This document shows positions 14,400-54,087 of a DNA stretch of 64,000 nucleotides, piece by piece. The notes under the pieces were generated by a model. It saw nothing but the letters and a program-made list of their open reading frames with translations. It was not told the DNA's origin and searched no databases. The stretch is from Candidatus Saccharimonadota bacterium (GTDB lineage Bacteria > Patescibacteriota > Saccharimonadia > Saccharimonadales > DTSZ01). Made by a program: the position numbers and the translations under genes. Each line of letters opens with the position of its first letter. Position 1 is the stretch's first letter. The stretch spans positions 591,629-655,628 of the forward strand of contig DTSZ01000001.1 in the NCBI GenBank assembly GCA_012965045.1, written 5' to 3'.

Positions 14400-14420
14400 C
14401 ATAGAGTTGTCTGAGTCAGT

Positions 14421-16867: not shown

Positions 16868-17163
16868 TGAAAAAATATCTCGAAAAACTTTTACCACTCC
16901 TCCAAGCTTTATTGAAACTGAAGGTCATTATCCTTAGCTTAATTGTGTTTATTATACTTAGCTTAACGATTACGCAGGCCCAAAAAGTTGGTGATAGCAT
17001 GCTTGACCGTGAATTAATCGACAAGAAGAGACTTGAAATTCAAGCCAATAAAGTAGAGTTCGATCAGGAAACGATTGATATCATCTACCAGCGCGTTAAA
17101 GAAGCTAATTTAGAAGCTCAGCCTGTAGACGATTCAACAAGCAACCCATTCTTTTACAACTAA
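16867..17163 (+). CDS. Small membrane protein (hypothetical; possible pilus assembly accessory)
   Basis: 98-aa ORF whose start overlaps the pilO stop. One TM helix followed by a charged helical tail. Confidence 0.45.
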   Translation: MKKYLEKLLPLLQALLKLKVIILSLIVFIILSLTITQAQKVGDSMLDRELIDKKRLEIQANKVEFDQETIDIIYQRVKEANLEAQPVDDSTSNPFFYN

Positions 17164-17705: not shown

Positions 17706-17760
17706 AATGGTAGTGCTTACTAGTAGTTTTAGTTATACTCTAATTAGTATACACATTATT

Positions 17761-18159
17761 ATGCTTAAAGATGACAACGGCTTCACCCTAACTGAACTTA
17801 TAGTTGCAATCGTGGTTGCGGTTATTTTGCTGACTGTTGCTAGTAATGCAATTATCAATCTAAATCGACTTAGCGCCCGATCAAGAGCCTTAGCGATTGC
17901 AAATGCTGCTGCCGAAAACAAGACCGAGGAAATTCGGAGTATTGGCTATTTGAATCTGGATAGCGCTGGGGACGGCACTTTCAGTATAGACACCAGTGAC
18001 CTCCCTGATGAGTTAATAAATCCAGTGGCAAGCTACACGGTGTCCACACCTGAGACCGGCCTGAAACAAGTCGAGATTAACCTTGCATATGATGTAAATG
18101 GCGACACAGAAAACCTCAACTACACCACGTACATATCGGAGCTTGGCGTTGGACAATAA
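17761..18159 (+). CDS. Type IV minor pilin/pseudopilin (prepilin-type N-terminus)
   Basis: MLKDDNG|FTLTELIVAIVVAVILLTV class III signal. I prefer the internal Met at 17761 over the ORF-track start at 17695. Confidence 0.7.
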   Translation: MLKDDNGFTLTELIVAIVVAVILLTVASNAIINLNRLSARSRALAIANAAAENKTEEIRSIGYLNLDSAGDGTFSIDTSDLPDELINPVASYTVSTPETGLKQVEINLAYDVNGDTENLNYTTYISELGVGQ

Positions 18160-18835
18160 CGACAGCACTCACCAAGCTGGCTTTACTATTTCAGAGCTAC
18201 TGGTAGCTCTGGTGGTGACGAGTGTAGTGATCGTAGCGATATTTCAGCTTTTTACGAGTTATTTTGGCGCAACCTTAAACAATGGTGCTCAGGTTAATCT
18301 AACTAATGAATCGCAAACTATTCTTAGAAAAATCGTTGAAGAAATACGGACAGGTTCAGCCATCCGTCAACAAAATTTAGTCCCTGACAGTAATGCACCA
18401 GGAGGCAATTGGCAAACATCTGAATCAGATGTAGTAATCATAATTGCTACCCCGACAATGAATGCCGATGGTGATTTTATAATCGACCCAAACACCGGCT
18501 CACCATACCAAACAGAGTATGTGTATTTTGTAGAAGACACCACGCTTTTCAGAAGAACGTTAGTGCCAGGCGGTGCATCCAGCAGCTCTCCTGCCGAAGA
18601 AACAAGCTGCCCTGAAGCTGTTAGTTCACCAAGTTGTCCGCCCGATCAAGTCATTACGTCCCATTATGCAGCAATGAATTTCGACTTCTTTGACCAGAAC
18701 AACGACGAGACGCCATCTCCGAGCTTAGCTCGTTCGTTAGTAATCAATATTACTCTACAAAGAAGCGGATTTGGTGAACCACGAACGGCCGAAAACCAAA
18801 TACGAATGACATTAAGAAACAACGAGGATTTTTGA
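18098..18835 (+). CDS. Type IV minor pilin (prepilin-type N-terminus), PilW/FimT-like
   Basis: HQAG|FTISELLVALVVTSVVIVAIF. The real start is probably a TTG near 18140, overlapping the previous gene's stop. The track ATG at 18098 lies inside the preceding gene. Confidence 0.65.
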   Translation: MATQKTSTTPRTYRSLALDNNDSTHQAGFTISELLVALVVTSVVIVAIFQLFTSYFGATLNNGAQVNLTNESQTILRKIVEEIRTGSAIRQQNLVPDSNAPGGNWQTSESDVVIIIATPTMNADGDFIIDPNTGSPYQTEYVYFVEDTTLFRRTLVPGGASSSSPAEETSCPEAVSSPSCPPDQVITSHYAAMNFDFFDQNNDETPSPSLARSLVINITLQRSGFGEPRTAENQIRMTLRNNEDF

Positions 18836-20223
18836 TGCCACACACCCTACATAACACGACCGAAAAAGGCTTTATTCTTCCGAGTATTGTCGTTCTTATT
18901 ACGTTCTTAATTGTGGTGGCTGCATCGTTTTTGCAGCTTGCTTCAAGTAGTTATTCTACTGCTATTGCTGATAAAACCATCGTCCTCGCCCAATTAGCAG
19001 CAGACGGAGGCATTGACTATTCAATGAACAAAATCAGCCAAGACCCAACCTGGCTTGGAACCGATGGTTTGGATGCAGATACCGATCCTGACGAAATAGA
19101 GCTCCACAATGACGGAACGTTTAGAACCACCTTCACTTCGCAAGTGTACAACCCTGCAGTTGATGAAAAATACTTTGAAATTACCGGCCGTTCCTACCGG
19201 CTAAGCGACAATAGCTTGCAAGCTACTCGCAGTTTTAGGGTTGACCTAAGCCCCGTTGTCTTCGGTGATGCCTCTATCATTACTGGCAATGGTGGCTTGG
19301 TTATGGACAACAGCTCAAAAGTAGTTGCTGGAAGTGTATTTATTAACGGCACCTTAACCATGAACAATAGTTCGCAAATTGGGCTTAGCGTTAATCCTGT
19401 CAGTGTAGAAGTAGCTCATTTCTCATGCCCAAACCCACCCGATGCAACATACCCACAACAATGTGCAGATGGTGAAAACGGTGAACCCATTACTATGAAT
19501 AACTCAGCCCATATATACGGTGATGTCCGGGCCACAAACCAAACAGACGGATCTGGCATGAGTGATGGCGGCCTGGTTCCAAACCAGACAGTCGCAGACA
19601 GAGAGTTACCGCCCCACGAGCGAGATACCCAAATAGCGGCTATTACTACCGAGCGCTCTGGCAACGATGCCTCGTGCACCAGTAACAACGGAGTGGAAAT
19701 CTGGGAAGCTAATACAAAAATCAATGGCAATGTTACTGTTTCAAAAAAATGCACAGTAATTATCGAGGGCGATATTTGGATAACAGGCGATTTCACGATG
19801 CGTAATCAAGGGAAAATTATTGTTGACGATCTAGTATCAACTACTCCCTACATCATGATCGATGGTGACGACATAGATTTTATGAATAGCACAGAAATTA
19901 TAGCCAACAACTTCGATGTAGGAGCTAATATCATTGGCTACTACAGTACTGCTCCTTGTTCACCAGACTGTAGTAACGTCACTGGCCCAGATTTTGAATC
20001 CTCTAAAGACCTCGAAACTATTACGATCAATAATTCTCTGAGCGCGCCAAATACCTTGTTTTATGCTCGATGGACAAAACTTACTGTTTTTAACAGTGGG
20101 TCAATTGGCGCACTAGTTGGACAGACAATTCATCTTAGAAACTCAGCTGCTGTCACTTTTGGTACAGACATAAGTGGTACTGGTACTCAAATATGGGTAA
20201 TCCGGACCTATAAGCGTATTTAA
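18832..20223 (+). CDS. Large minor pilin / tip-associated protein with PilX-like N-terminal domain
   Basis: N-terminus [52 protein letters not shown] matches the PilX_N pattern. The rest is a Gly/Asn/Thr-rich, beta-helix-like region. Start overlaps the preceding gene. Confidence 0.6.
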
Positions 20224-22543: not shown

Positions 22544-23011
22544 TTAGATTGTAAATCCGTGAGTTAGGGCTACGGCTAGGCCATCGGCTGCGTCGTCGGG
22601 TCGAGGAATGTCTTTTAGTTTCAACAGAGTTTTTACCATTTCTTGAACTTGAATTTTTTCCGCCTTACCATAACCGGTCATAGCCTGTTTAATCTGCAGC
22701 GGTGTGTACTCTGCTATCTGTAAATTCGCTTTGGCAGCGGCAAGTAAAACAACTCCACGGGCTTCGCTTACTGTCATTGCTGTCGTTATATTTGTGTTAA
22801 AAAATAGCTTTTCGATCGCCAGGGTGCTTGGTGTATGCTCTTGAATTAATTCCGTTACACAATCAAAAATAATTTGCAGTCGCTCGCCTTGGGGCTGATG
22901 GGCTTTGGTTCGAATCACTCCTGCATCAAGCATTTTTGGCTTAGCTTTAATAACTTCGATCACGCCAAAACCAGTTATACCGGTGCCTGGATCTATGCCG
23001 AGGATTTTCAT
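22544..23011 (-). CDS. ruvC: Crossover junction endodeoxyribonuclease RuvC
   Basis: MKILGIDPGTGITGFGVIE start with the catalytic Asp in the DPG motif. RNase H-like fold, length 155 aa. Confidence 0.9.
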   Translation of the reverse strand: MKILGIDPGTGITGFGVIEVIKAKPKMLDAGVIRTKAHQPQGERLQIIFDCVTELIQEHTPSTLAIEKLFFNTNITTAMTVSEARGVVLLAAAKANLQIAEYTPLQIKQAMTGYGKAEKIQVQEMVKTLLKLKDIPRPDDAADGLAVALTHGFTI

Positions 23012-23472
23012 TAAATTACGTATTTTCGCCAGTCAACACTACTAGCAATTCTTATGTTGTTCAAATCTTTTAGATTCACCCATTCCGGAAATTTAGCATA
23101 TTCCTTTTCGTCCTCATCAAAACCATCAACTGAAAGTTCACCACCGACGTAATTGCATTTGCAATAAATCATTAACGAATGAAATGGAGGGCTGCCTGGT
23201 TTATGAGGTTTATAGAAACTAGTTTCAAAACCAACAAAACTCTGAAACGTGGCCTCTATACCGGTTTCTTCTTTTACTTCTCGCTCTACAGCTTGAATGT
23301 GGGTTTCGCCAAGCTCAATCCCGCCGCCTGGCAAGTCGTAACCTTCAAATTGAGGCGAAAGCAAAATCTTTCCCTCATGAATTACAATGCCATAAATTGA
23401 CGGCCTAAACTCTAGGTCTGTTGAATCTACTTTATGCTGTTTGCCGTTGACGTCCTTAGCGATTACTTTCAT
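23011..23472 (-). CDS. NUDIX hydrolase
   Basis: Nudix box GGGIELGETHIQAVEREVKEETGIE. Confidence 0.8.
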   Translation of the reverse strand: MKVIAKDVNGKQHKVDSTDLEFRPSIYGIVIHEGKILLSPQFEGYDLPGGGIELGETHIQAVEREVKEETGIEATFQSFVGFETSFYKPHKPGSPPFHSLMIYCKCNYVGGELSVDGFDEDEKEYAKFPEWVNLKDLNNIRIASSVDWRKYVI

Positions 23473-24237: not shown

Positions 24238-25683
24238 CTACTCAATCACTTCGCTGGCGTTTAGTTGGCTACCAGATTTTTTATAAAGAATTAAAATGAC
24301 ACCCAGGATTGATGCATAAACACCAATCATGCCAACTGTCGATAAATTAATGGTTACCAGCGCATAAGGAATTTGCGCTAACAATGTCACCAGCGAAGTT
24401 ATGAGTTCTAAAATAAATCGAGCTGGCCAAGCAAACCAACCAGCGAGTGGGGTTATGAGCCAACCGCTAAGACCGGCAATAAATGTCAAAAGCATGGCCA
24501 ACGGAATTAACGGCAAAATAATCGCATTGGCCAAAATTGCAATTAACGAAAATTCTCCAAAAATAGCGCCAATTAGCGGCATAGTTAATAACTGGGCGCA
24601 TGATGTTTCAAGCACTATTTGCATAATTGTGTTTGGTTTTTTGTCGCCGTACAGGCGTTTTGTAACCAGTGGCGCCAATATAAGCACGCCAATAAATGCC
24701 AGAAACGACAGCCACCAACCAAGATCACTCCATAAAAATTGCGGATTTAACCCAGCTGTGATTGCGCCGGACAATAACAGCAGCATAGTCGGGCTGACTT
24801 TTCGCCCCCAATACCACGCCAGCAAGGCCAGACTGGTCACCACCCCAGCACGAGCAATTGACGGACTTATACCTGTTATGGCGATAAAACTAATAATTAA
24901 CGCAAAAGAGCCACTGACAGCCCAGTACTTAGAAAATTTTGCCAAGCTACGCCGCATCAAACGCACTAAAATAGTAAGGTTGTAACCACTAACCGCAACA
25001 ATATGAGTTAGCCCCGTAACACTAAGTGCACTCAATAAATCATCTGGCAGCAAGGTTCTGCCACCAACTAAAAAACCGAGGCCTAAACTGCTCTCGGGTT
25101 CTGGTAATGAGCTGTACGTGCCGGCAAAAAAGTTCTTACGAACTGAGTTTATTGGGCTGTCTGTTCTGGCTAGAACATCTACTTGTGCAAACGAAATATC
25201 AGCATTATCGCTTCCATAGCCCGATTTAATCGTGCCGCGCACCTGCACCCTGTCGCCGCGCTGTAGACTCGTTATACCAAAACCAGAAACTTCTACCCTA
25301 CCCGGCAACTTATTTTCTTCGAACACAACCTGCCCTATGTGAAATTCTCTTTGAAAAAATCTATTGTAGACAGGATCATCTTCGACCACTCCCTCTATAA
25401 TCACCGATTGTCCCACTAGTTTTTCGTATACGTTAGTGGCACTAATTTCCTGTTGTCCGCGAATAAAACCAAGGCTCAATCCCAGTAACAGCGCTGCTAC
25501 TATTGCTGGCAATTTCTTTGTAAAAACTAAAGGCCCGCTCACTATTCCAAGTAATAGGATCGTTGCCGAAATAGTCGGCCAGTGCGCCGCCCACCACAGT
25601 CCAAGCAAAAATGTTAATAAAAATATCTGAATTTTTGTAGTTCGCCGAAAGCGAACTTGACCCAGGCGTAACAGATAAGGCAT
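24238..25683 (-). CDS. comEC: DNA internalization competence protein ComEC/Rec2 (core channel form without the beta-lactamase domain)
   Basis: Polytopic membrane protein. OB-fold-like periplasmic segment (QSVIIEGVVEDDP...). Competence-domain motif LSVTGLTHIVAVSGYNLTILV. Confidence 0.8.
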   Translation of the reverse strand: MPYLLRLGQVRFRRTTKIQIFLLTFLLGLWWAAHWPTISATILLLGIVSGPLVFTKKLPAIVAALLLGLSLGFIRGQQEISATNVYEKLVGQSVIIEGVVEDDPVYNRFFQREFHIGQVVFEENKLPGRVEVSGFGITSLQRGDRVQVRGTIKSGYGSDNADISFAQVDVLARTDSPINSVRKNFFAGTYSSLPEPESSLGLGFLVGGRTLLPDDLLSALSVTGLTHIVAVSGYNLTILVRLMRRSLAKFSKYWAVSGSFALIISFIAITGISPSIARAGVVTSLALLAWYWGRKVSPTMLLLLSGAITAGLNPQFLWSDLGWWLSFLAFIGVLILAPLVTKRLYGDKKPNTIMQIVLETSCAQLLTMPLIGAIFGEFSLIAILANAIILPLIPLAMLLTFIAGLSGWLITPLAGWFAWPARFILELITSLVTLLAQIPYALVTINLSTVGMIGVYASILGVILILYKKSGSQLNASEVIE

Positions 25684-28441: not shown

Positions 28442-28518
28442 TGGAGGGTCCAGTGGGACTCGAACCCACGACACCCTGCTTAAAAGGCAGGTGCTCTAAC
28501 CAGCTGAGCTATGGACCC
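28442..28518 (-). tRNA. tRNA-Lys (anticodon TTT), CCA encoded
   Basis: Manual cloverleaf. Acceptor GGGTCCA/TGGACCC, D-stem GCTC/GAGC, anticodon stem CCTGC/GCAGG, loop CTTTTAA, T-arm GTGGG-TTCGAGT-CCCAC. Length 77 nt. Confidence 0.9.
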
Positions 28519-28602
28519 TCGTATGTAAAAAGCTACGAGAATAAGAGAATGTAACTTTTACTCACAAAATGCTAGCATGCCACCTCTGTTTTTTCAACTC
28601 TA

Positions 28603-29118
28603 TTATTTTTTTGCTCTTGATCGACGACGACTCTTTCGTGCTCGTAGTAGTCCTGGGTTTGTTTGACTCATCACCTCAAAGAAGGCAACACCAAACGACA
28701 TAAGAGTCACTAAACCACTGAATCTATTAAGTTGGTTCGCAAAATAAGAGTTTCTAAACGGATCTTCAAAGCCGGCAAGTATAAACGTATTAGTGGTCGC
28801 CACAATCAACATAAACGCAAAGAAGGCCGATACAATTATGCGCTCCACTGGATTAAATCGACCCCCGCCACGAAAATGCCAGTATGCATAAAAGGTCGGC
28901 CCAAAAACTAACAGGCTATACACCAGCAACTTAGCATTGTCTGTCTCAAAGATAGATGCTTGAGAAGATAAAAAATTCAATAAATCTGGTCCAAAACTGA
29001 TACCGAGTAACATGCTGCTCAGCAACACCAGTAGAACTGTTTGGACCGATACGCGTTTTATTATTGAAACGCCTGTAAAAAATAAAACTACAAATAGTGA
29101 TAAAAAATCAGATGACAT
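28603..29118 (-). CDS. Hypothetical polytopic membrane protein with a basic C-terminus
   Basis: 171 aa, 4-5 hydrophobic helices, ends RARKSRRRSRAKK. Confidence 0.5.
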   Translation of the reverse strand: MSSDFLSLFVVLFFTGVSIIKRVSVQTVLLVLLSSMLLGISFGPDLLNFLSSQASIFETDNAKLLVYSLLVFGPTFYAYWHFRGGGRFNPVERIIVSAFFAFMLIVATTNTFILAGFEDPFRNSYFANQLNRFSGLVTLMSFGVAFFEVMSQTNPGLLRARKSRRRSRAKK

Positions 29119-29140
29119 ATCTAAGCATCAGTATAAACGA

Positions 29141-30451
29141 TTATGCTTTTTTAGTTTTCACTGGAGTGACTTCGATTTTTACGGCCTGTTCAAGCCGGCG
29201 AATATCTGCCAGTAGATCCGATCGTGATTTATTGTGCAACGTAATGTTAAAGACGCTCTTGCCGCCGTTTTTAGCAAATTTACACATGTCACCCTTGGTT
29301 TTATTTATTTTTAAATTATAAAACGAGGTTAAAGCACGTGCTTTGTTCATTCCATTAATCTTTTCAAGTCGGCCCTCTTTGTTTGAGAAAAACTTCATGC
29401 TAGCTGTATAGCCTTGTCGTTTCTTTTTAATTATTGGCTTTCGACCAGTCCGAACCAAAAGGTCGTTATAGGCATGGTCAAATCCGTATGATAATTGATA
29501 CAGGTTCTGACGAAATCCACCCATCCGGCACGCTATTTCGACTATTTTAAAGCCCGTTAGTTCAGTCTTTATTACCTCAACATGAACTATTGTGTTGCGT
29601 AGTCCTAAAGCGTGAACGCCTTTTGCAGCCACCTGTTCCATGTCTTTAATTTTACGCGCCAGCAACTTAACTGGGGTCATTTGCTTGTAGCCAAAGAAAT
29701 CATCAAAACCAATCGCCCGGCCTGTCTTTATGTGTACCGGCGGCACAAAATCTACACGACCAGTATTATCAACGTAGCCATCTATTGAATACATAGTGCC
29801 TTCTAGAAACTGTTCGATTAGTACTTTTGGTTCACCACGCCCAGCATATGACTTATGTGCTGCCTTAACCTGTCGTAGGGTACGTTTTAAATTAGATACT
29901 AACTCTTCTTCGTGGTAGCAAATACTCACCAATACACTGGCGGCTAACCCGCTTGGCTTAATTACCAGCGGAAAACCAACTTTTCGTTTGATTTTTGAAA
30001 TAGTCTTGTCGCTAATGTCGGTAGCAATGGTATAAGCCGGTGTAATTTTTTTATCGTATTCGGTAAAACGTCGACGCATCAGTAATTTGTCGGTCGACCA
30101 GTTAATCGACGTTTCAGTCGGCGTTAATGTATATGGGACATGGGGTATAACCCGCTTAAAATTCTCCAACAAGTCCTCTGACCGACAAGTGATAGCAATT
30201 ACGCGGTGTAAGTATGGTAGAAGTGCTTCATGAATTTGTTTTGGTGATTTAAGATTTATTTCAATTTTTGTAAAATCTTTTTGAAAAACACTCTTATTAG
30301 CTTTTTGTGACTTATCAATAAGCCAAACACGTTGCAAAGGACGGCGGAGTTTTTTTTCAAGCTTATCAATGGCAATACTTAATGAATCACCCACATCTTT
30401 GCTGTCGGTGGCTAGTACAATGACGGTGTCTCTCGAAAATTGCTTCTCCAT
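29141..30451 (-). CDS. ATP-grasp domain protein (carboxylate-amine ligase superfamily)
   Basis: Central FPLVIKPSGLAASVLVSICYHEEEL and HVEVIKTELTGFKIVEIACRMGG segments fit the ATP-grasp B and C subdomains. Preceded by a pre-ATP-grasp-like N-domain. Confidence 0.65.
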   Translation of the reverse strand: MEKQFSRDTVIVLATDSKDVGDSLSIAIDKLEKKLRRPLQRVWLIDKSQKANKSVFQKDFTKIEINLKSPKQIHEALLPYLHRVIAITCRSEDLLENFKRVIPHVPYTLTPTETSINWSTDKLLMRRRFTEYDKKITPAYTIATDISDKTISKIKRKVGFPLVIKPSGLAASVLVSICYHEEELVSNLKRTLRQVKAAHKSYAGRGEPKVLIEQFLEGTMYSIDGYVDNTGRVDFVPPVHIKTGRAIGFDDFFGYKQMTPVKLLARKIKDMEQVAAKGVHALGLRNTIVHVEVIKTELTGFKIVEIACRMGGFRQNLYQLSYGFDHAYNDLLVRTGRKPIIKKKRQGYTASMKFFSNKEGRLEKINGMNKARALTSFYNLKINKTKGDMCKFAKNGGKSVFNITLHNKSRSDLLADIRRLEQAVKIEVTPVKTKKA

Positions 30452-30633
30452 ATCTTGCTCAACATAGGCGTCTTTATCTGTTATGTCAAGTATTGTTTAT
30501 CCTAAAAACTGCAAAAAATCATCATATTTAATGCAATCATTTTTATATTCTGTAAAAGGTTATTTATTTTACAACGATTAACAGTTTAAAAAGCAGCTGA
30601 TTTTGTTACGCTTAAGGTAACTAAAGGTCAAAC

Positions 30634-32508
30634 ATGCGCTTACCAAAAAATGTAATATCACCACTTGGGTTGTCTCGTTACCAAGAACATGCCGCTCTGG
30701 TATATTCGTCAAAGCGCCGAGGCCACGGAAAATTAGGTCTAGCTCTCAGTGAAGACGGTCTTCATTTTAACGAGTCCGTTGATGCTCCGGTAATATTCAC
30801 CGGTCAAAACAAAACGGAATCAATTGCTGACACCAGCGACTACCGTTTTGCAAAAGTGGCTCACGACCACCTGCTTACCTACACCAAAAATGGCCGCTTA
30901 GTCATTGCACGAGAAGAAGAATCCGGCGACCTCTGGGACTTAGCAATCTGGAAAACACTACGAACAGGTAACCCACGTGCTACTAACGGCATGTTTGTGC
31001 CAGAGTATAAATACAACAATCAATACGTCTTGTTCTACAACACCAGCAGCATTAACTTTGCAGTCACAAAAGACTTTAAAGACTGGCACTCGCCATACCG
31101 CCCAGTTTTAGAGCCACGCCGACATAACTTTGATAACAAGTCTCTAAAAATAGTTTCAGTTGCAAACATTAGTAGTGGAATTGCTGTGTTGTACGAGTCG
31201 CAGTCAATGCGTAAGCGACAGCAAACTATTCATGTTGGGTTTGCTGTATTTTCGCGCCAAAACCCTGGTAAGTTAATCTGGCGCAGCGAAGGGCCGTTAT
31301 GGGCTGCCACAAACGCCGGTAGGTCAAAAATTGAACTCCTTGGTGCAGACATACAAAACGATTCTATTCGTTTATACGGTAGCTCTGTCTCCAACGGTCT
31401 ATTTACCGTCGACCTCCAACAACCGCTTAAGCTAGACGAAGTTAGCCGACCAAAATTCGAACTAGAGCGTCATCATAAAAACCCGTTGCTTAGCCCAGAA
31501 GGTGGCGAACACTGGGAGTCGTCAGGGGTATTTAACCCAAGCGTCGTCCACCACGAAGGCAAGGTGCATATTTTGTACCGTGCTGTTGACCCGTACGGCG
31601 TTAGTCATGTCGGTTATGCCAGCACAACCGACGGGTCAGAAATAGACTATCGGCACAACGAACCTTGCTACTGGCCACGCGCATGGTTTGAAGCTGGTAG
31701 AGGCAAACGGCCATATAAAGAATGGAATAAAGCCTTTGGTTCCGGCGGCGGCTGGGGCGGTTGCGAAGACCCTAAGGCAACACTTATGGATGACAAAGTC
31801 TACATGACCTATGTTGCCCACGACGGCAGCCCCTATTTGCGTTTATGTATAACATCAATTGATATAGATGATTTTGTAAATCATCGGTGGGATAAATGGG
31901 CATGGCCAAAAGTAATTAGTAACCCTCAATTTGGCCCACACGTTAATCCACCATTTGGAGTTCGTGTTATAAAAAGTGGAATAATCTTGCCAGAGAAAAT
32001 TAACGATAAATATGTGATTTTCTTCAAAGAACCGCCACATGTTGGCATTCATTATATTGACGATATCGAACGACTTGGTATTGATGAAGAGCTCGAAGCT
32101 CATGACTTCATATACACTCGCCCCGGTCATTGGGACAGTCAAAAACTCTCGATGGGATCGACTCCGATTTTAGTAAATGAAGGTTGGCTGGTTATATACC
32201 ACGCCGTCGATAAACGCGAAGGTCACAAATATAAAATTGGCGCTATGTTACTTGATAAGAACGATCCAAGTAAGGTATTGCGGCGCACCAATACCCCAAT
32301 TCTTGAACCTGATGCTGACTATGAAAACAACTGGAAACCTGGCGTTGCCTACCCATCTGGTGCGGCTATCATCGGTGATCAACTTCATGTGTATTACGGC
32401 GGTGGAGACCGACACGTCTGCGTTGCAACAACTCCCCTGCAAGAGTTCATGGACCATCTAATGAACGAAGAAGAAATTCACCTAACTGCAGAAGTCACGG
32501 TTAGTTAG
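30634..32508 (+). CDS. Tandem two-domain GH130-like (DUF377, beta-mannoside phosphorylase family) protein; the N-terminal copy is degenerate
   Basis: The C-terminal half has the GH130 hallmarks NPSVVHHEGKVHILYRAVD, GCEDPKATLMDDKVYMTYVAHDG and HVYYGGGDRHVCVATT. The N-terminal half is a diverged copy that lacks CEDPR. Confidence 0.7.
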   Translation: MRLPKNVISPLGLSRYQEHAALVYSSKRRGHGKLGLALSEDGLHFNESVDAPVIFTGQNKTESIADTSDYRFAKVAHDHLLTYTKNGRLVIAREEESGDLWDLAIWKTLRTGNPRATNGMFVPEYKYNNQYVLFYNTSSINFAVTKDFKDWHSPYRPVLEPRRHNFDNKSLKIVSVANISSGIAVLYESQSMRKRQQTIHVGFAVFSRQNPGKLIWRSEGPLWAATNAGRSKIELLGADIQNDSIRLYGSSVSNGLFTVDLQQPLKLDEVSRPKFELERHHKNPLLSPEGGEHWESSGVFNPSVVHHEGKVHILYRAVDPYGVSHVGYASTTDGSEIDYRHNEPCYWPRAWFEAGRGKRPYKEWNKAFGSGGGWGGCEDPKATLMDDKVYMTYVAHDGSPYLRLCITSIDIDDFVNHRWDKWAWPKVISNPQFGPHVNPPFGVRVIKSGIILPEKINDKYVIFFKEPPHVGIHYIDDIERLGIDEELEAHDFIYTRPGHWDSQKLSMGSTPILVNEGWLVIYHAVDKREGHKYKIGAMLLDKNDPSKVLRRTNTPILEPDADYENNWKPGVAYPSGAAIIGDQLHVYYGGGDRHVCVATTPLQEFMDHLMNEEEIHLTAEVTVS

Positions 32509-33721
32509 CCGGTTGTATTGTCTTCCATAGTTTTACTTGCAACCAATACGTTGCTAGTCCTCCAAAAGTTACAATCGCCCACACAGTACGCAAAAATAGC
32601 TCACTGTTGTCTAAGATATGAATAAGCCCAATAAAGAAGCCTAAGCCAACTAGTCGTGTAGAAAACTTAATCACCTCAAGAAGATAATTAAGTTGAAGTG
32701 TATTTCTTTGAACATCACTACCAAGCACAGCCTCGCGTAAGCTAATGTCTAAATCGTCATCTATGGGCTTCTCTATTGTCTGTGCGCCTTTTTCAATAAC
32801 AGCTCTGCCAATCAGGGCAGGCGCTTGCCAGGACGCCACTAAACCAAGTGTTGCTGCCACCCTAATTGAATGTAAGTAATACCCAAGCCGCAAGTTACCT
32901 TTTAGCTCCACATGGCGCCGTACATAGACAACTATCGCTGCAATTAAGGCAACTCCACTTACAAAAACACCGTAGCCAAAAATGCTACCTAGTATTAAAA
33001 ACGGAGCAATCTTCCAAAAATGACTTTGTAATTCATCCTGTAATGTATCAATGAAATAAATTCGCAAAAAGCGTTTCCATTCTGGGTGATTTTTTAGGCT
33101 ATTGAGGAAGGATTTTGATAAAAGCGGCGCTTTTGGTGGAATAGTATTGTTTTGATACGTCTTAAATAGACTCAGGAAGCTTAACAGGGCGGCAACAATC
33201 AAGAACGCTCGGTAGCCCACGACAAAATCCAGCAAAAACCCAATTATCAGTGGCAAAAATACACTCATGATTGTTTCGTAGCTTCCAGAAACTTGAAATA
33301 TATAGCTGCGCTGTTTGCTTTTCATTTCTTTTACAGCAACATAGTGTGAGCTTGTGTGATAAAAACCTGAGTCTATTCCTCGCATCACAGACAGCACCCA
33401 AAACCATGTAAACGGGTCTTGCTCAAGTAGTGGCCAGATTAAAATAGAAATAAATATAAGTACTGTTCGAAGATACCGCCCGTATACCCAAACGACACCA
33501 TAGCCTTTTTTGCGAAGTAGAACATTGGCAACAGTAATGCCTACCATGGTTGCACACGCTATAACTAATTTGTCTAAAAATACTAAAGTTAAAGAACCGC
33601 TCAAGACAAATAGAACAACACTGTAGAGTTCTCCCAAAATACCCCATATAAACAAGGCTGTCATTCTGTTATAAAAAAATTGCCGAACGACGTCGGCTTG
33701 AGACTTTAGCTCTAAAAACAT
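32501..33721 (-). CDS. Polytopic membrane protein, putative MFS-type or similar transporter
   Basis: 406 aa with about 10-12 hydrophobic helices. Lies between the two GH130-like genes. Confidence 0.45.
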   Translation of the reverse strand: MFLELKSQADVVRQFFYNRMTALFIWGILGELYSVVLFVLSGSLTLVFLDKLVIACATMVGITVANVLLRKKGYGVVWVYGRYLRTVLIFISILIWPLLEQDPFTWFWVLSVMRGIDSGFYHTSSHYVAVKEMKSKQRSYIFQVSGSYETIMSVFLPLIIGFLLDFVVGYRAFLIVAALLSFLSLFKTYQNNTIPPKAPLLSKSFLNSLKNHPEWKRFLRIYFIDTLQDELQSHFWKIAPFLILGSIFGYGVFVSGVALIAAIVVYVRRHVELKGNLRLGYYLHSIRVAATLGLVASWQAPALIGRAVIEKGAQTIEKPIDDDLDISLREAVLGSDVQRNTLQLNYLLEVIKFSTRLVGLGFFIGLIHILDNSELFLRTVWAIVTFGGLATYWLQVKLWKTIQPAN

Positions 33722-33764
33722 GACATTAGCATAGCAGCATCACATCATAGAAGCTGCTACAATA

Positions 33765-35687
33765 GTGTTTATGTTTACAGTAACCAGAAATAAAAAGAAT
33801 CCAATCATAAAAAGTAATAACGACGAGCCGTGGCGTGCGTTGGCAGCGTTTAACTGTTCGCCGGCTAAAGTAGGCGACTCGCTTCATTTAGTATTTCGGG
33901 CAATGACCGACGAAGCCCTGTACAAGGGTCACAACGTCGAGCTATCGACCATAGGACATGTAATGGTTGACCCTCAGACACACCATTCCATCGGAGAATA
34001 CAAAGTCCTTATACAGCCCGAAGAAGACTGGGAGATGTATGGCTGCGAAGACCCGCGGGTAACTAAAATTGATGACACATACTATATTTTCTACACCGCT
34101 CTGAGTGGTTTTCCATATTCGGCTGAAAATATTAAATGTGCCGTGGCGACCACCAAAGACTTTAAGACAATCGACAGCCGGCAACTGGTAACACCGTTTA
34201 ATGCTAAGGCCATGGCGCTTTTTCCAGAAAAAGTCGACGGTAAATGGACTGTTATTTTGACTGCAGATAGCGACAAGCCACCTTCTAAAATGGCTATAGC
34301 TCAAAGTGACAATTTTGATGATTTTTTAAATCATGACTGGTGGGCAAATTGGTATGAAGAAGTTGAACACCATAATATTGACCTGCGCCGCGTGGATACT
34401 GACCACTGCGAAGTTGGCGCACCTCCAATAAAAACTGATGCGGGCTGGCTCCTTATCTACAGCCACATCCAAGATTACTTTACCGACGACAAGGTTTTTG
34501 GAATCGAAGCTGTTTTATTAGACAAAGACAACCCACGAAAAATTATCGGCCGTACTCGCTACCCATTTATGGTGCCAGAAGAAAGCTACGAACAATATGG
34601 ACAACTGCCAGACATCGTTTTTCCAAGCGGAGCTATGTTGGATGGCGACATCCTAACAGTTTTTTATGGAGCTGCCGACACAACTTGCGCCTCTGCTAAA
34701 TTGCGGCTGTCACACCTGCTTGAATCTATGCAGATGGAAGGAAAAAGTTACGCGAAACGCTACAGTGGCAATCCGATTCTACTCGCTAAAGAAGAAAATT
34801 ACTGGGAAAGCAGCTATGTCCTAAATCCTTCAGCAATAGAAATTGACGGCGAAATAAATATTCTTTACCGAGCGCTTGGGCCTGACAACACATCTGTTTG
34901 CGGCCTAGCAATTACAAAAGATGGCTACACAATTGACGAGCGTCTTGATGAGCCAATCTACATACCGCGGGCTAAATTTGAGTCAAAGCTTAAACCACCA
35001 GACGGCATATCTGGCTGCGAAGACTTGCGGGCCCAAATTATCGGTGATCGAATTTTTGTAACCTACACAGGCTACAATGGCGTTGACCCTCCGGCTGTCG
35101 CAGCAAGTTCGATTTCTATTGAAGAATTTAAAAACCGCAAGTTTCAATCTTGGACCGAGCCTCACCTAATTAGTCCGGTTGGCATCGACGACAAAGATGC
35201 TGCAATTTTTAGTGAAAAAATAAACGATCAGTACCTTGTATTTCATAGAATTGACCACCATATATGCGCCGACACCCTACCAGAACTAGATTTTGAAAAG
35301 CATCAGCTTGACCGCTGTATCCAGGTTATGGGACCGCGTAAAGGCATGTGGGACAGTCTAAAAATTGGAATCAATGGTCCGCCGATAAAAACCGAAAAGG
35401 GTTGGTTGCAGTTCTACCACGGCATTAACGAGCATCACCACTACCTTATGGGGGCCGCGTTGCTAGATCTTAAAGATCCAACAAAAATCATTGGGCGATC
35501 TGCTATGCCAATAATGGAACCTGAAACCCAGTGGGAACTTGAAGGTTGGATAGACAATGTTATTTTTAGTTGCGGTCAAGTTGTTCGCGACGACACAATT
35601 TTTATTTATTATGGTGGCGCTGACACAGTTGTGGCTGTGGCAACATTAAGCTTGTCGGAGCTTTTGAGCCAACTCAACGAGGCTTAG
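33765..35687 (+). CDS. Tandem two-domain GH130-like (DUF377) glycoside phosphorylase-family protein; both copies intact
   Basis: N-terminal half: YGCEDPRVTKIDDTYYIFYTALSG ... TVFYGAADTTCA. C-terminal half: NPSAIEIDGEINILYRALG ... GCEDLRAQIIGDRIFVTYTGYNG ... FIYYGGADTVVAVA. Paralog of 30634..32508. Confidence 0.75.
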   Translation: MFMFTVTRNKKNPIIKSNNDEPWRALAAFNCSPAKVGDSLHLVFRAMTDEALYKGHNVELSTIGHVMVDPQTHHSIGEYKVLIQPEEDWEMYGCEDPRVTKIDDTYYIFYTALSGFPYSAENIKCAVATTKDFKTIDSRQLVTPFNAKAMALFPEKVDGKWTVILTADSDKPPSKMAIAQSDNFDDFLNHDWWANWYEEVEHHNIDLRRVDTDHCEVGAPPIKTDAGWLLIYSHIQDYFTDDKVFGIEAVLLDKDNPRKIIGRTRYPFMVPEESYEQYGQLPDIVFPSGAMLDGDILTVFYGAADTTCASAKLRLSHLLESMQMEGKSYAKRYSGNPILLAKEENYWESSYVLNPSAIEIDGEINILYRALGPDNTSVCGLAITKDGYTIDERLDEPIYIPRAKFESKLKPPDGISGCEDLRAQIIGDRIFVTYTGYNGVDPPAVAASSISIEEFKNRKFQSWTEPHLISPVGIDDKDAAIFSEKINDQYLVFHRIDHHICADTLPELDFEKHQLDRCIQVMGPRKGMWDSLKIGINGPPIKTEKGWLQFYHGINEHHHYLMGAALLDLKDPTKIIGRSAMPIMEPETQWELEGWIDNVIFSCGQVVRDDTIFIYYGGADTVVAVATLSLSELLSQLNEA

Positions 35688-35690
35688 ACC

Positions 35691-37046
35691 GTGCCACGGG
35701 CAAAGAAAAAACAACCAACATCGACGACCACTACGAAAACAATTGAACAAGCTAAAAAAGTCTTAGACATAAATTTTAAAGATGGCTACACTATGCCATC
35801 AAAAGTACTCTACCCGCACCAATGGTTATGGGATTCGTGTTTTCATGCAATTGGCCTACGGCACCACCGTCCAGATCGTGCACTGGAAGAAATCAAACTG
35901 TTACTACGGGGCCAATGGCCAAATGGTATGGTGCCGCATATGATTTTTAGTGGCGCCAAGCACGGACATCAACGCTACAATATTTGGAAGTCACATGTCT
36001 GTGACGACTGTGTTGTCGGCCTGAGGACCAGTGCAATCACGCAACCGCCTGTCATTGCTTGGGCGTTCGAAAAGGTAGTAAATAGCCTGCCCAAAAAAGA
36101 TCAAAAAGCAGCTATCGAAAAATACCTGCCGCAGATAATTCGCTATCATCAGTGGCTGTATGCAGACCGTGACCCTGACCAAACAGGTCGCATTGTAATT
36201 ATTCACCCGTGGGAAAGTGGCCTCGACAACAACCCAGCACTAATGGCAGCACTGCGTGAATGTTTCCCTGTGAATACCAGTGAAAAAATATTTTTGACCA
36301 ACCCTTTTGTACGCGGTGTATACCACAAGCTTCGTAAAGACATTCAAGTCACGAGCGCTGCCGAGCGAAGTCGAACTGTTGAAAACTGGATGTTTGCACG
36401 ACTTATTGCCCGGTATCGTCGCAAGCTCTATAAAACCGAAGCCATCTTATATGATAAAAATAGCTTCGTTGTTGAGGATGTTAGCTTTAACGCAATATTT
36501 ATTCGGTCTAATGCCGCTATAAAAACTCTGGCGAAAAAAATAAAACTCACACTGCCAGACGACTTAACTCAAGCAATGGACCGTAGCGACGCAGCGTTTG
36601 CTGATTTCTGGAACGACGACAAACAAGCATATTTATCGCGCAACTGGCACACCAAACAATCAATTCCAATTGAAACGATCGAAGAATTACTGCCACTCAT
36701 AACTTCTATTATCCCCAAATCAAATGCTAAAAAAATTGTCACAAAACTTGAATCAAATAACTTTTTCACACCTAAGCCGGTATCCACAAACAACACAGCG
36801 CGCGACGACTACGACCCTATTCGTTATTGGCAAGGCCCAGTATGGGTAAATATGAACTGGATGATTATCGAAGGACTAAAGAACTACGGCTATACCAAAA
36901 AAGCTAAAGACCTCGCCAATTCAACAATTAAATTAGTCGAAGAAAATGGCATATGGGAGTACTACAATTCGCAGACTGGCATGGGCCACGGAATCAGCAG
37001 TTTTTCCTGGACCGCAGCTTTGTATTTAGACTTAATTAATTCCTAA
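35691..37046 (+). CDS. (alpha/alpha)6-barrel glycoside hydrolase, GH63/MGH1-like (putative)
   Basis: YPHQWLWDSCFHAIG near the N-terminus of the barrel region is the W-WDS-F hallmark of the GH63/GH37/MGH family. Length 451 aa. Confidence 0.55.
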   Translation: MPRAKKKQPTSTTTTKTIEQAKKVLDINFKDGYTMPSKVLYPHQWLWDSCFHAIGLRHHRPDRALEEIKLLLRGQWPNGMVPHMIFSGAKHGHQRYNIWKSHVCDDCVVGLRTSAITQPPVIAWAFEKVVNSLPKKDQKAAIEKYLPQIIRYHQWLYADRDPDQTGRIVIIHPWESGLDNNPALMAALRECFPVNTSEKIFLTNPFVRGVYHKLRKDIQVTSAAERSRTVENWMFARLIARYRRKLYKTEAILYDKNSFVVEDVSFNAIFIRSNAAIKTLAKKIKLTLPDDLTQAMDRSDAAFADFWNDDKQAYLSRNWHTKQSIPIETIEELLPLITSIIPKSNAKKIVTKLESNNFFTPKPVSTNNTARDDYDPIRYWQGPVWVNMNWMIIEGLKNYGYTKKAKDLANSTIKLVEENGIWEYYNSQTGMGHGISSFSWTAALYLDLINS

Positions 37047-37379
37047 CTCAACTTCTTCCGCTCTAAATTCTACAAGTTCTCGGATGCGATCATCAACATA
37101 CTGACTTCTTTCAAGAAAGTTCATTCCGCCTAAAATTTGGTCACGTTCACTGACATCGCCAGTCAACCCAGCAGCAATGTCGTCCCTAATTGCAGATTCT
37201 CTACAAGCCTTGCGCACTAATACTGGGCAAGTGTCGCATATAGCCTTTGCTATTTCTTCCCTGCTTCGACGTGCATTTATGCCTTCAGGTCTCAAATCGT
37301 CAGGAGGAAAAAATAAGTCACCCTCTCCGACACATGGTTTTGCTGTTAATGACATCTTTTTATCTAAATCTACAAACAC
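37032..37379 (-). CDS. WhiB-like (Wbl) Fe-S transcription factor
   Basis: KPCVGEGDLFFP ... AKAICDTCPVLVRKAC ... ILGGMNF. That is four Cys in the Wbl arrangement (C, then DLFFP, then C-x2-C-x7-C) plus a GGM turn, followed by a basic C-terminal helix. The 3' end overlaps the convergent GH63-like gene by 15 nt. Confidence 0.65.
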   Translation of the reverse strand: MFVDLDKKMSLTAKPCVGEGDLFFPPDDLRPEGINARRSREEIAKAICDTCPVLVRKACRESAIRDDIAAGLTGDVSERDQILGGMNFLERSQYVDDRIRELVEFRAEEVELGIN

Positions 37380-37475
37380 TGCCTTGCTCCTTTTATATAA
37401 AAACTACTCTTTGCTTTTGTAATCTGTCAAGTTCGTTGTTTATTTAAGTGGCACGAAAATGGACATAGTAGTGTT

Positions 37476-38102
37476 CTATGTATCGTTTATCAACAAGTTA
37501 ATCTGACTACTGTCTGCTGGCATATCCCATCTACTCCACTCATCACGGTATCTCTGAAACTCTTCGTCGGGAACCTTATGTAAATGTTTTGGATTAAAGA
37601 CTCGTTGGAACCAACGGATTCCATTCAAGTGATCGACTTCATGCTGTACGATCCGTGCAACAAATCCACTGAATTTATTTATGACAACTTCACCGTATTC
37701 ATTGTGCCAACGAACCTCTACCGCCTCAGAACGTTTAACAACACCGCCATAGCCTGGTAACGAAAAACACCCTTCTCGATCTTCTGCTTGATTGCTACTA
37801 GCCCAAGTTATTACAGGATTTATCATAAAAATATTATTTGGCGTCGGATTAACAGCTTTTGGGTCTGCATCAATATCAACTAAAATCACCCGAGCGTTCC
37901 AACCAATTTGCGGGGCAGCCAGTCCGACCATAGTTTTTGTGCCGGGTGTTGGGTCTTGTATAACTCCAGCAATTTTTTGCATTTGCAGGAGCGCATTTTT
38001 AAATGCAATCGACTTATAATCAATGATCTCTGCAGTTACTTTTTTCAATAGGGGATTGCTTGGTTCTAAGATACTAAATTTATCTTTTTCCCCATCTTCC
38101 AT
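37476..38102 (-). CDS. def: Peptide deformylase
   Basis: Motif I GLAAPQIG, motif II EGCFSLPG, motif III QHEVDHLNG. Confidence 0.9.
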   Translation of the reverse strand: MEDGEKDKFSILEPSNPLLKKVTAEIIDYKSIAFKNALLQMQKIAGVIQDPTPGTKTMVGLAAPQIGWNARVILVDIDADPKAVNPTPNNIFMINPVITWASSNQAEDREGCFSLPGYGGVVKRSEAVEVRWHNEYGEVVINKFSGFVARIVQHEVDHLNGIRWFQRVFNPKHLHKVPDEEFQRYRDEWSRWDMPADSSQINLLINDT

Positions 38103-38125
38103 CTTCTAACTACCAGCTTCTAAAT

Positions 38126-39253
38126 CTACAGCCATTTCTTGCCTTTTTTGGTTCTAAATTCTTCGAGTATTTTCTTTTGTTTTTTGCTCAGTTTGGTTGG
38201 CGTGTCTACAAGTACGCGTACAATGTGGTCGCCACGTGATTTACCGCGTAAACTCGGCACACCTTTGTTGGCAATTTTAAAATCTGTACCACTTTGGGTC
38301 CCAGCAGGAATTTTTAGCTTTTCTTTCCCATCAACGGTTTCTAGTTCAATTTCTGTTCCTAGCGCTGCGTCTACCATTGGCACGTGTTCGTCGCTTAAGA
38401 TTAAATTACCTTCTCTCGTGAAGTGCTTATGTGCTTTAACGCGCACATTTACATATAAGTCGCCAGCGTTTCCGTTTGAGGCAACTTCACCGCGGCCAGT
38501 AAGCCGAATCGTAGCTCCATCATAAATACCAGCAGGGACTTTAAGCGTAGTTTTTTTACTCTGTCGAGTAACACCACTGCCACCACATACGCTACATTTT
38601 TTCTCTGGAATTTTCCCTTCACCCTTACATGTCCGACAGGTTCTGGCTTGCTGAAAATTACCAAGCGGCGTTTGCATTACTTGTACTTCTTGACCGCTCC
38701 CTTTGCAGGTGTCACATGTTTTTACATCGTGACCAGGCTCTGCTTTTGTCCCTTTACAATGCTCACATACATCTAGAAGGCTTAGTTCAACTTCTTTTTC
38801 GGTACCAAAAATTGATTCTTCAAATGTTAACTGGACGTTTGTCTCAACATCGCGGCCACGTTCGGTTTGTGTCCTAGTTCGCCGGCCACCACCGCCGCCA
38901 CCAAAAAATCCTTCAAAAATATCACCAAGTCCAAGGTCGCCTAAGTCAACATGTACTCGCTGGCCAGACCCGCCACCAAACCCACCAAAAATGTCTTCAA
39001 AACCACTAAAACCAGCTCCGCCGCCACCGCTCGCTCCGCCAACACCAGCATGTCCGAACTGGTCGTAGCGTTGGCGCTTGCTTTCATCTTTTAATACTTC
39101 ATAGGCTTCAGAGGCTTCTTTAAATTTAGCCTCGTCACCGCCTTCTTTATCTGGGTGATGCTTAATAGCCAATTTTCTAAAAGCCTTTTTTATCTCGTCT
39201 GCGCTGGCGGATTTACTAACTCCTAAAATTTCGTAGTAATCTCGTTTAGCCAT
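38126..39253 (-). CDS. dnaJ: Chaperone DnaJ
   Basis: J-domain [33 protein letters not shown]-rich linker, four CxxCxGxG zinc-finger repeats, C-terminal domains. Confidence 0.95.
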
Positions 39254-42791: not shown

Positions 42792-42818
42792 TTAGCACTC
42801 ACGGTGCAAGAGTGCTAG
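42792..42818. promoter_or_regulatory. CIRCE operator (HrcA binding site) in the dnaK leader
   Basis: TTAGCACTC-acggtgcaa-GAGTGCTAG: 9-bp inverted repeat with a 9-nt spacer, about 310 nt upstream of the dnaK start. Confidence 0.8.
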
Positions 42819-44895: not shown

Positions 44896-44922
44896 TTAGC
44901 ACTCAAATGTCCAGAGTGCTAA
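44896..44922. promoter_or_regulatory. CIRCE operator (perfect consensus) at the hrcA promoter
   Basis: TTAGCACTC-aaatgtcca-GAGTGCTAA. Confidence 0.85.
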
Positions 44923-53613: not shown

Positions 53614-54087
53614 TTATGTATGGGTAAATAGTTGACGCTTTTCATCTTCGCTTAGGTAGGTTTTACCGCCGTTAAAATAGCAGTGCAGCCCAACTTTACT
53701 CGGTTCAAAATGTGGTTCTGGTACTTCGTGCCATGGCAACCACCAGTAACCTTCGTTTTTATCTGGTTCACGGTTTTGCAGGGTGCCGTTAAAGTGTATT
53801 GTGTGAAGAATTATCGAGATCGTATGTATTCCGGCCGCTTCAACTAGACTCAAGTTATTCACCACGCCCATAACGCGCCAAGCTTTTTCGTCTACCCTTA
53901 GACCGGCTTCTTCATACAATTCTCTGCTGGCAGCTTTTTCAAACTCTTCGCCATAATCAAGCTTGCCGCCCGGTATTGAATACTGGCCGGCAGCATGGCT
54001 GCCTATTCTACGACCTATTAAAACGGCGTCGTCGTCAATACTTTCAACAATCAAGCCCACCCCAACAATTGGAGGGGTTTCGCTCAT
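53614..54087 (-). CDS. NUDIX hydrolase
   Basis: Nudix box GGKLDYGEEFEKAASRELYEEAGL. Confidence 0.8.
   Translation of the reverse strand: MSETPPIVGVGLIVESIDDDAVLIGRRIGSHAAGQYSIPGGKLDYGEEFEKAASRELYEEAGLRVDEKAWRVMGVVNNLSLVEAAGIHTISIILHTIHFNGTLQNREPDKNEGYWWLPWHEVPEPHFEPSKVGLHCYFNGGKTYLSEDEKRQLFTHT

Follow-up and report, generated by a model that had tools for sequence, protein, structure and literature searches.

A divergent, non-canonical WhiB-like protein encoded on a Saccharibacteria chromosome

Proteins of the WhiB-like (Wbl) type are described in reviews as exclusive to Actinobacteria and actinophages (PMC6282962, PMC13013590). Here we describe a gene, wbl, that encodes an intact but atypical member of this family on a chromosome of Candidatus Saccharimonadota; it lies in a stretch of 64,000 nucleotides, called the window throughout (contig DTSZ01000001.1, positions 591,629 to 655,628). 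At a probability of about 0.5, we read its product as an acquired Wbl that would carry a [4Fe-4S] cluster and bind region 4 of a sigma factor, and not DNA itself. The homology of the protein, its putative ligands and aromatic pair, its predicted fold, its host and its variable location were computed, and from these we infer cluster binding, sigma binding, a regulatory output and the route of acquisition. A first-pass annotation of the window, made from the letters alone, had proposed a Wbl protein in a Saccharibacteria-like, non-actinobacterial genome and had noted the taxonomic restriction of the family; the reviews cited above do state that restriction, and the assignment of the genome was borne out as follows.

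The window reads as an ordinary small cellular chromosome, with recA, recX, ruvABC, a type IV pilus cluster, comEC, hrcA-grpE-dnaK-dnaJ, ftsH, tilS, lepA, murJ and three tRNAs. In a scan of 185,579 species genomes the 12 best matches of its DnaJ, at 58-67% identity, were all from metagenome-assembled genomes of Candidatus Saccharibacteria/Saccharimonadales, and those after the top 12 fell to 46-48% identity in other, unrelated phyla. The related loci have the backbone order murJ-lepA-gmk-hrcA-grpE-dnaK-dnaJ-[variable]-tRNA-Lys(UUU)-comEC-yebC-ruvC-ruvA-ruvB, which the window shares on both sides of wbl; like DnaJ, the DnaK of the window finds its match in the 12 Saccharimonadales genomes. Furthermore, the exact wbl protein is present at NCBI as HIA92098.1 and HIO87957.1, each named 'WhiB family transcriptional regulator [Candidatus Saccharibacteria bacterium]'. 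The DnaJ matches, the gene order and the NCBI protein label support a Saccharibacteria/Saccharimonadales chromosome, not an actinobacterial one, as the host of wbl. It might be objected that the family is otherwise actinobacterial and the source a metagenome assembly, so that actinobacterial or phage DNA could have been misjoined to a Saccharibacteria scaffold during assembly or binning. The probability of such an artefact is close to negligible: the identical protein occurs on seven contigs from several assemblies (the longest a metagenome scaffold of 929,678 bp), six of the seven with mostly the same neighbouring proteins; the GC content of wbl is genome-like (41.7%, against 42.9±2.7% for the open reading frames (ORFs) of the window); the gene overlaps its convergent GH63-like neighbour by 15 nt at the 3' end, as had been noted in the first pass; and Saccharimonadales backbone genes flank it, less than 1 kb away in one direction and at about 9 kb in the other. 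The wbl gene is a genuine part of this genome and not a contaminant.

Family membership was recovered by profile searches, including the search for WhiB that had been put forward as a check. The protein matched the Pfam Whib model (PF02467) with an E-value of 1.9e-9 and 38.3 bits (gathering score 23.6), its residues 19-80 aligning with profile positions 11-61 of 65, and it matched a dozen PHROG WhiB-like families, down to E 2.6e-8. Its best sequence relative of solved structure in the PDB is Mycobacterium tuberculosis WhiB3 (E 2.5e-5), and none of the NCBIfam models matched it. When all six frames of the window were scanned, no Wbl match other than this ORF was obtained.

The Cys ligands of the Wbl [4Fe-4S] cluster classically follow the pattern C-Xn-C-X2-C-X5-C (PMC6282962). 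In three alignments C16, C48, C51 and C59 of the wbl protein fall in invariant columns, F23 in one that is invariant or nearly so and F24 in a nearly invariant one, and A44 is also retained. The first-pass annotation had credited the ORF with the full Wbl signature. The 115-residue ORF, its C-x2-C-x7-C motif and the first Cys followed by DLFFP (C16 and then GEGDLFFP) are all as it described, and with the four Cys and the FF pair this much of the signature holds; the spacing of x7 in place of x5, a turn devoid of Trp and an acidic tail depart from it. Five of the 57 other Wbl hits have the x7 spacing too, as does the phage-borne group of P0174, P0033 and P0012. Judged by sequence, C16, C48, C51 and C59 provide the four-Cys arrangement of the family with X7 in place of X5, and binding of a cluster is predicted. 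For the binding of sigma-A region 4, at least two residues of an aromatic patch (AP1-4), including at least one of AP2-3, are present in 98.7% of 995 Wbls (PMC13013590). The patch of the wbl protein consists of AP2 and AP3 only (F23 and F24), the smallest complement compatible with this rule.

Besides the Cys residues, the G[V/I]WGG turn has been considered the only universally conserved sequence of Wbls (Bush, PMC6282962). Generic profiles (Pfam, PDB and the alignment A1) place G71-LTGD of the wbl protein on this motif, at the canonical spacing from C59, whereas alignment A3 and BLASTP place the same segment on the GLSAG loop of phage-type Wbls. In alignments that include long-loop proteins (BLASTP to P0047, BLASTP to P0174, MAFFT L-INS-i and A3), the turn falls on Q81-ILGG. 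Deletion of either 11-residue candidate segment left the scores of a hidden Markov model (HMM) tied, at 70.2 versus 69.6 bits. AlphaFold reached a predicted local distance difference test score (pLDDT) of 89.5 and a predicted template modelling (TM) score of 0.75 with A3, against 79.4 and 0.53 with the generic alignment A2; in the A3-based model DSSP assigned bridge residues 83 and 86, and the mean pLDDT over residues 81-90 was 94. Because the long-loop alignments put the turn there and the A3-based model is clearly better, ILGG (I82-M86) is probably the turn, although the placement is ambiguous from the sequence alone. The GGM turn of the first-pass annotation (ILGGMNF) was hence probably placed correctly; what it lacks is the family Trp, which is absent under either placement (L83 or T73). 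Since the turn has no Trp in either case, the protein is, on its sequence, a Wbl-family homologue but not a canonical Wbl. Non-aromatic variants of the turn (IAGG, IMGG and VRGG) also occur in 5 of 57 other Pfam-level Wbls, and the G[V/I]WGG motif thus appears to be very common in the family, not strictly universal. The adjacent segments GLTGDVSERDQ and ILGGMNFLERS (residues 71-92, positions 37122-37169) fit the Wbl turn motif equally, and the pair could be an old internal duplication or the product of chance.

When the predicted structures were compared with the PDB using Foldseek, all seven matches of model 1 were Wbl structures (WhiB3, WhiB1 and WhiB; target-normalised TM 0.60-0.74), and the only confident match of model 2 was WhiB3. 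These models were built from Wbl alignments, and the match of the fold is thus no independent evidence; the predicted fold is that of the family, with helices packed around a cluster pocket. A further element, the positively charged C-terminus that contacts DNA, is counted as motif iii of the family (PMC6954389; PMC6282962), and the earlier description of a basic C-terminal helix in the wbl protein proved wrong: residues 88-112 contain 4 K+R against 8 D+E, the tail has a net charge of -6 and the protein an isoelectric point (pI) of 4.66, where the 57 other hits have medians of +2 for the charge of the tail and 8.9 for the pI. The protein thus departs from the classical description of the family on three counts: the turn motif G[V/I]WGG, the basic C-terminus and the range of host taxa.

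By analogy, the core of the wbl protein would work most like those of WhiB1 and WhiB3. WhiB3 (PDB: 8cyf, 8cwr, 8cwt), whose class includes Streptomyces WhiD, resembles it with a TM score of 0.59-0.74 and 34-37% identity; the two proteins have in common the four Cys ligands, two aromatic residues that follow the first Cys (in MFF of WhiB3 and LFF of the wbl protein) and, in the predicted fold, a helical bundle around the cluster pocket. In contrast, WhiB3 possesses a C-x2-C-x5-C motif, a GVWGG turn and a basic, DNA-contacting C-terminus (PMC10245118), where the wbl protein has: 1) the x7 spacing, 2) about 10 additional residues ahead of the turn, 3) ILGG without Trp, 4) an acidic C-terminal helix and 5) a non-actinobacterial host. 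The comparison with WhiB1 bound to sigma-A region 4 (PDB: 6ono; TM 0.66-0.69) aligns F23/F24 with WhiB1 F17/F18, which, like H516/P517 of sigma-A, are needed for formation of the complex (PMC6954389). W3 (AP1) and W60 (AP4) of WhiB1 are replaced by S10 and L83 (or T73), and the wbl protein is devoid of DNA-binding Arg residues at its C-terminus.

Close relatives were sought widely. A HMMER search over 1.84 billion cluster representatives retrieved 59 proteins at E<=1e-3, and only the wbl protein's own copy lay below 3e-7. One of the hits, P0008 (743 aa), was rejected as a spurious match to an 'AERD..I.GLN' repeat protein; the others are Wbl proteins, and in most of them Gly, Ala, Arg and Pro abound, which is the composition that genomes of high GC would be expected to give. 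All named hits, from the profile search, plasmids, phages and the viral structure library, came from Actinobacteria or an actinophage, with the plasmids giving only weak actinobacterial Wbl matches and the INPHARED phages a single weak one (Thermobifida phage P1312, E 3e-4). A word-indexed homologue search with the wbl protein returned its own copy only, a genome-contig scan gave no match and a viral-contig scan with the single protein gave no relatives. No Wbl labelled as belonging to the candidate phyla radiation (CPR) was present among 120 profile hits or 58 representative hits, and candidates for such a protein were rejected: P0088, on the one contig checked among those of 785-797 kb that bear Wbls of 115 and 100 aa, has 70% GC and actinobacterial-type neighbours, and the low-GC Wbls P0181, P0179 and P0118 have phage-like contexts.

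Among the more distant hits we define a phage-type x7/long-loop subgroup (P0174, P0167, P0171, P0156, P0141, P0033, P0183 and P0012) by its C-x2-C-x7-C motif and an insertion of 9-11 residues with GL[ST] before the turn. The wbl protein is 38% identical to it over the core and shares with it the 2-residue insertion in the Cys motif (CPLAVRKSC versus CPVLVRKAC), the insertion before the turn (GLSAGNRNGIYGG versus GLTGDVSERDQILGG) and acidic residues directly after the turn; with the subgroup included in the alignment, the AlphaFold pLDDT of the wbl protein rose from 79 to 89.5. Unlike the wbl locus, the contigs of the subgroup have 66-71% GC and carry integrase, terminase and portal genes. P0174 lies on a 38-kb contig (65.7% GC) with integrase, HNH, methylases, YqaJ, a DnaB-like helicase and single-stranded DNA-binding protein, and P0012 on a 41.7-kb contig (71% GC) with terminase and portal genes. 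The subgroup also differs from the wbl protein in keeping an aromatic turn residue (Y or F) and, in most members, in adding C-terminal zinc-finger-like and helix-turn-helix (HTH) modules. By eye, P0174 (L173 10001-10513) and its relatives, of 169-170 aa, combine a Wbl domain, a C2H2-like zinc finger and a C-terminal HTH on a temperate-phage contig, and P0181 (L168 1816-2202) a Wbl domain and a C-terminal HTH on a phage-like contig of 43.5% GC. Only one other protein was found to unite a long loop ahead of the turn, a turn without Trp (YIMGG) and a C-terminal helix of acidic character, namely P0047 (99 aa, pI 4.39, on a 1.8-kb contig of 45% GC from run SRR13378641), whose helix reads DIDRELRELIEVR against DDRIRELVEFR in the wbl protein; it differs in being 33% identical, in its C-x2-C-x5-C motif and in adjoining a DDE transposase. 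The indels that the wbl protein has in common with other Wbls are indicative of phage-borne types and not of chromosomal actinobacterial ones, and for actual derivation of wbl from a phage-borne type they furnish only a hint, to which the tree adds no support.

In the mechanism that we propose, C16, C48, C51 and C59 would hold a [4Fe-4S] cluster, and the cluster pocket, lined by F23 and F24, would dock, in the manner of WhiB1 and WhiB3, on the C-terminal His-Pro loop of the primary sigma factor (region 4) of the same cell. Once O2, nitric oxide or redox stress had led to loss of the cluster, the protein would be released from sigma. Direct contact with DNA is unlikely because the tail is acidic; the wbl protein would instead probably modulate RNA polymerase through protein contacts, or recruit or block a partner, without binding DNA on its own. 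Outside Actinobacteria, too, primary sigma factors widely share the RHPSR end of region 4.2, and given this conservation a Saccharibacterial sigma factor could be the partner.

Several observations weigh against this proposal. A search of the window, of the 10-kb flank on either side and of the related loci recovered no sigma factor, and the docking site is thus a prediction. AP1 (S10) and AP4 (L83 or T73) are non-aromatic, which could weaken or abolish sigma binding. All copies of wbl found are identical, so that selection on the gene is not measurable. The phylogeny that the first-pass annotation had called for was built but did not settle the placement: in a neighbour-joining bootstrap over 89 shared columns, the wbl protein grouped with the phage-type subgroup in 1 of 60 replicates, and the tree is unresolved. 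Lastly, its standing as an orphan in part reflects a poorly sampled lineage, because the neighbouring Def (<=49% identity to its relatives) and GH63-like protein (<=42%) are equally isolated.

Two other accounts can be given of what the protein does. It might be a neutral leftover of a past transfer, i.e. a still open ORF with a useless product, whose drift would explain why the Trp and the basic tail are gone. Degeneration of two of the three classical motifs, the variable interval in which the gene lies, the lack of any orthologue in the representative search and the lack of sequence variants to show purifying selection all suit such a leftover; the retention of the four Cys, the FF pair and A44, the intact ORF with a strong ribosome-binding site, the confident compact AlphaFold fold (pLDDT 89.5) and the non-aromatic turns of 5 of 57 other Wbls do not. 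A fully ameliorated composition likewise implies long residence without decay in a reduced genome of about 0.93 Mb, and on balance we consider a decaying relic unlikely. Alternatively, the Wbl scaffold could serve a non-transcriptional Fe-S/thiol redox protein that does not bind sigma, for example a cluster-dependent redox sensor or a disulfide reductase with other proteins as its targets, a role in line with the missing basic tail, the two missing aromatic-patch residues of four and the position of wbl at the end of a dnaK-dnaJ-def chaperone and protein-maturation string, downstream of genes controlled by the CIRCE (controlling inverted repeat of chaperone expression) element. Disulfide-reductase activity is reported for some mycobacterial WhiB proteins. 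Nevertheless, the FF pair critical for sigma binding is retained (PMC6954389), sigma-A region 4 is bound by every Wbl tested, including those of phages (PMC13013590), and the placement of wbl beside def and dnaJ recurs in no relative, which leaves a purely redox role decidedly improbable.

Turning from function to origin, we consider that wbl was most probably acquired horizontally from the gene pool of Actinobacteria and actinophages, and would later have adapted fully to the composition of its recipient. That source is favoured because it is the only known reservoir of Wbls and because Actinobacteria are the usual host lineage of cultivated Saccharibacteria. The first-pass annotation had likewise proposed acquisition from the host lineage, a plausible course with which part of the evidence agrees. 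The gene occupies a variable interval between dnaJ and tRNA-Lys, which spans 9.6 kb in the window and 0.6-8.9 kb in the 7 Saccharimonadales relatives in which the tRNA is present; Wbl, def, GH63 and GH130 were absent within 10 kb of dnaJ in all 12 related Saccharimonadales loci, an answer for this locus only to the question of presence in related genomes; and no orthologue was recovered. Other results count against a transfer from the host lineage. The proposed comparison of base composition revealed no foreign trace, the GC content being native and the GC at third codon positions (GC3) of wbl (0.293) being lower, not higher, than that of the window ORFs (0.387±0.04). No mobility genes were found near wbl, and no donor clade could be identified. 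Recent transfer from a high-GC donor was rejected on the GC3 value, and a prophage island on the lack of integrase and phage genes between tRNA-Lys and dnaJ, a stretch with the same GC content as the remainder of the window. An empty site of wbl in sister genomes, searched for via relatives of the GH63-like protein and of Def, was not found.

Native composition and the lack of mobility genes nearby would equally befit an old, vertically inherited Saccharibacteria Wbl, patchily retained and so far unnoticed. The lineage is poorly sampled, and, as the NCBI pipeline already applies the WhiB family label, further Saccharibacterial examples could exist in public annotation. This history nonetheless seems to us quite improbable: wbl is absent from the syntenic interval in the 12 Saccharimonadales loci (a weak test, covering about 200 kb of related genomes), the 120 profile and 58 representative hits include no CPR-labelled Wbl, and a literature search retrieved no paper linking WhiB with the genomes of Saccharibacteria, Patescibacteria, CPR or TM7 themselves.

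The more adventurous suggestion that the epibiont directs its Wbl at the sigma-A of an actinobacterial host, reprogramming or blunting host transcription as actinophage Wbls do, draws on several facts: PMC10633639 describes cultivated Saccharibacteria as living on Actinobacteria, phage Wbls bind host sigma-A region 4 (PMC13013590), and the wbl protein has indels in common with phage-borne Wbls and no DNA-binding tail, as expected of a decoy. However, its N-terminus lacks an evident signal peptide or secretion motif, and no secretion-system gene adjoins wbl. To our knowledge, there is also no precedent for the delivery of a folded Fe-S protein into a host cell. We regard such a host-directed mimic as very improbable, and hold the same of its specific form, a tail-less and Trp-less decoy on host sigma-A region 4 competing with the Wbls by which the host regulates cell division, stress and antibiotic tolerance; if true, a cellular parasite would for the first time be seen to have adopted a phage strategy.

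With reviews up to 2026 restricting Wbls to Actinobacteria and their phages, an intact copy on a CPR chromosome is a counter-example. It also offers a concrete case for gene flow from a host, or from the phages of a host, to an epibiont, as cultivated members of the lineage live on Actinobacteria. If the wbl protein still binds sigma, as we propose, the docking of a Wbl on sigma could be carried over into a distant phylum, and the protein would be a natural minimal Wbl with neither turn Trp nor DNA-binding tail. The practical impact is modest, this being a single orphan gene from metagenomes, already labelled WhiB family by NCBI, whose function is predicted only.

Table 1. Features of the wbl gene, its product and its surroundings (positions in the window)
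Feature	Position	Strand	Basis
wbl coding sequence	37032..37379	-	ORF list; PF02467 above gathering cut-off; identical protein on 7 contigs
Cys16, first cluster ligand (predicted)	37332..37334	-	Invariant column in alignments A1, A3
Phe23-Phe24, aromatic-patch AP2-AP3 (WhiB1 F17/F18)	37308..37313	-	Alignments; role from PMC6954389, PMC13013590
CDTCPVLVRKAC, C48-x2-C51-x7-C59 (canonical x5)	37203..37238	-	Translation
G71-L-T-G-D75, loop motif in long insertion, or turn according to generic HMMs	37155..37169	-	Alignments
I82-L-G-G-M86, most likely beta-turn, Leu for Trp	37122..37136	-	Alignments, AlphaFold
Long acidic C-terminal helix (predicted), about residues 88-112	37044..37118	-	AlphaFold helices 88-112 and 88-111, pLDDT 88-95; charge counts
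Shine-Dalgarno AAGGAG, 7-nt spacer to wbl GTG	37387..37392	-	Read from sequence
Weak sigma-70-like promoter match TTGATA-17-TACTAT at end of def (candidate)	37465..37493	-	9/12 positions match
15-nt overlap, convergent 3' ends of wbl and GH63/MGH1-like gene	37032..37046	.	ORF list, sequence
GH63/MGH1-like glycoside hydrolase gene, convergent to wbl	35691..37046	+	Pfam families
Peptide deformylase gene (def), directly upstream of wbl, 96-bp gap	37476..38102	-	Pfam Pep_deformylase
dnaJ, conserved boundary of interval, last of hrcA-grpE-dnaK-dnaJ backbone	38126..39253	-	DnaJ scan, gene order
Variable interval tRNA-Lys to dnaJ, contains wbl	28519..38125	.	Comparison with 12 related loci
tRNA-Lys(UUU), other conserved boundary	28442..28518	-	ARAGORN, Rfam; between dnaJ and comEC in 7 relatives

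The wbl ORF (Table 1) begins with GTG and ends with TAA in the ORF list. This start is preferred over an internal ATG (Met9) because AAGGAG precedes the GTG and the motif is scarce in the window, where a Shine-Dalgarno-like sequence stands before 10 of 62 mechanically called starts. Many start codons in the window, as called without curation, have a TAnnnT-like hexamer just 5' of them, and this, together with the scarcity of Shine-Dalgarno motifs, hints that leaderless mRNAs are frequent in this genome. The wbl gene is the last of the co-directional dnaK-dnaJ-def string. Sites as weak as the sigma-70-like match upstream are no commoner than expected from shuffled sequence, and read-through from dnaJ-def and transcription from this candidate promoter appear equally possible.

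Besides def, wbl and the GH63-like gene, the variable interval contains two GH130 genes, an ATP-grasp gene and genes for unknown proteins of 406 and 171 aa. The best non-self relative of Def shows 49% identity in an alignment that spans 65% of the query, and the maximum among full-length relatives is 44%; those with names come from CPR, Chlamydiia, Cyanobacteria and Proteobacteria, with Actinobacteria not among them, and the closest ones examined (40% and 44% identity) have unrelated contexts from which wbl is absent. A metagenome scan with the GH63-like protein gave relatives in 80 loci, at <=42% identity, with no synteny and no wbl nearby. The ATP-grasp gene has a distant match (32% identity) in one related locus only, L006. 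With its pair of GH130 genes, its GH63/MGH1-like hydrolase, its ATP-grasp enzyme and its divergent def, the interval (28519-38125) is possibly a mannoside-utilisation island, any relevance of which to the mannose-rich envelopes of Actinobacteria is speculative.

Other features of the window were recorded in passing. A protein with three lamin-tail-domain repeats is encoded at 6287-8065. The type IV pilus cluster extends over 10668-20223 beside recA/recX and specifies a PilB-like ATPase, PilC and PilM as well as several prepilins that bear N-methylation motifs and include a ComP-like one; ComEC follows farther along, at 24238-25683. At least three NUDIX genes are present (23011-23472, 53614-54087 and 62029-62553), as are tandem, slightly overlapping HD_3/YfbR-like (5'-deoxynucleotidase) paralogues at 57038-57688 and 57663-58283. 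A VKOR-family protein at 59815-60468, with a DsbD-like membrane protein just outside the window (L170 5263-5967), suggests an extracytoplasmic disulfide-bond system in this reduced genome. Finally, CIRCE repeats, perfect or with one mismatch (TTAGCACTC-N9-GAGTGCTAA), stand before hrcA (44896-44922), dnaK (42792-42818) and ftsH (56005-56031), and from the last of these the HrcA regulon seems to include FtsH in this genome.

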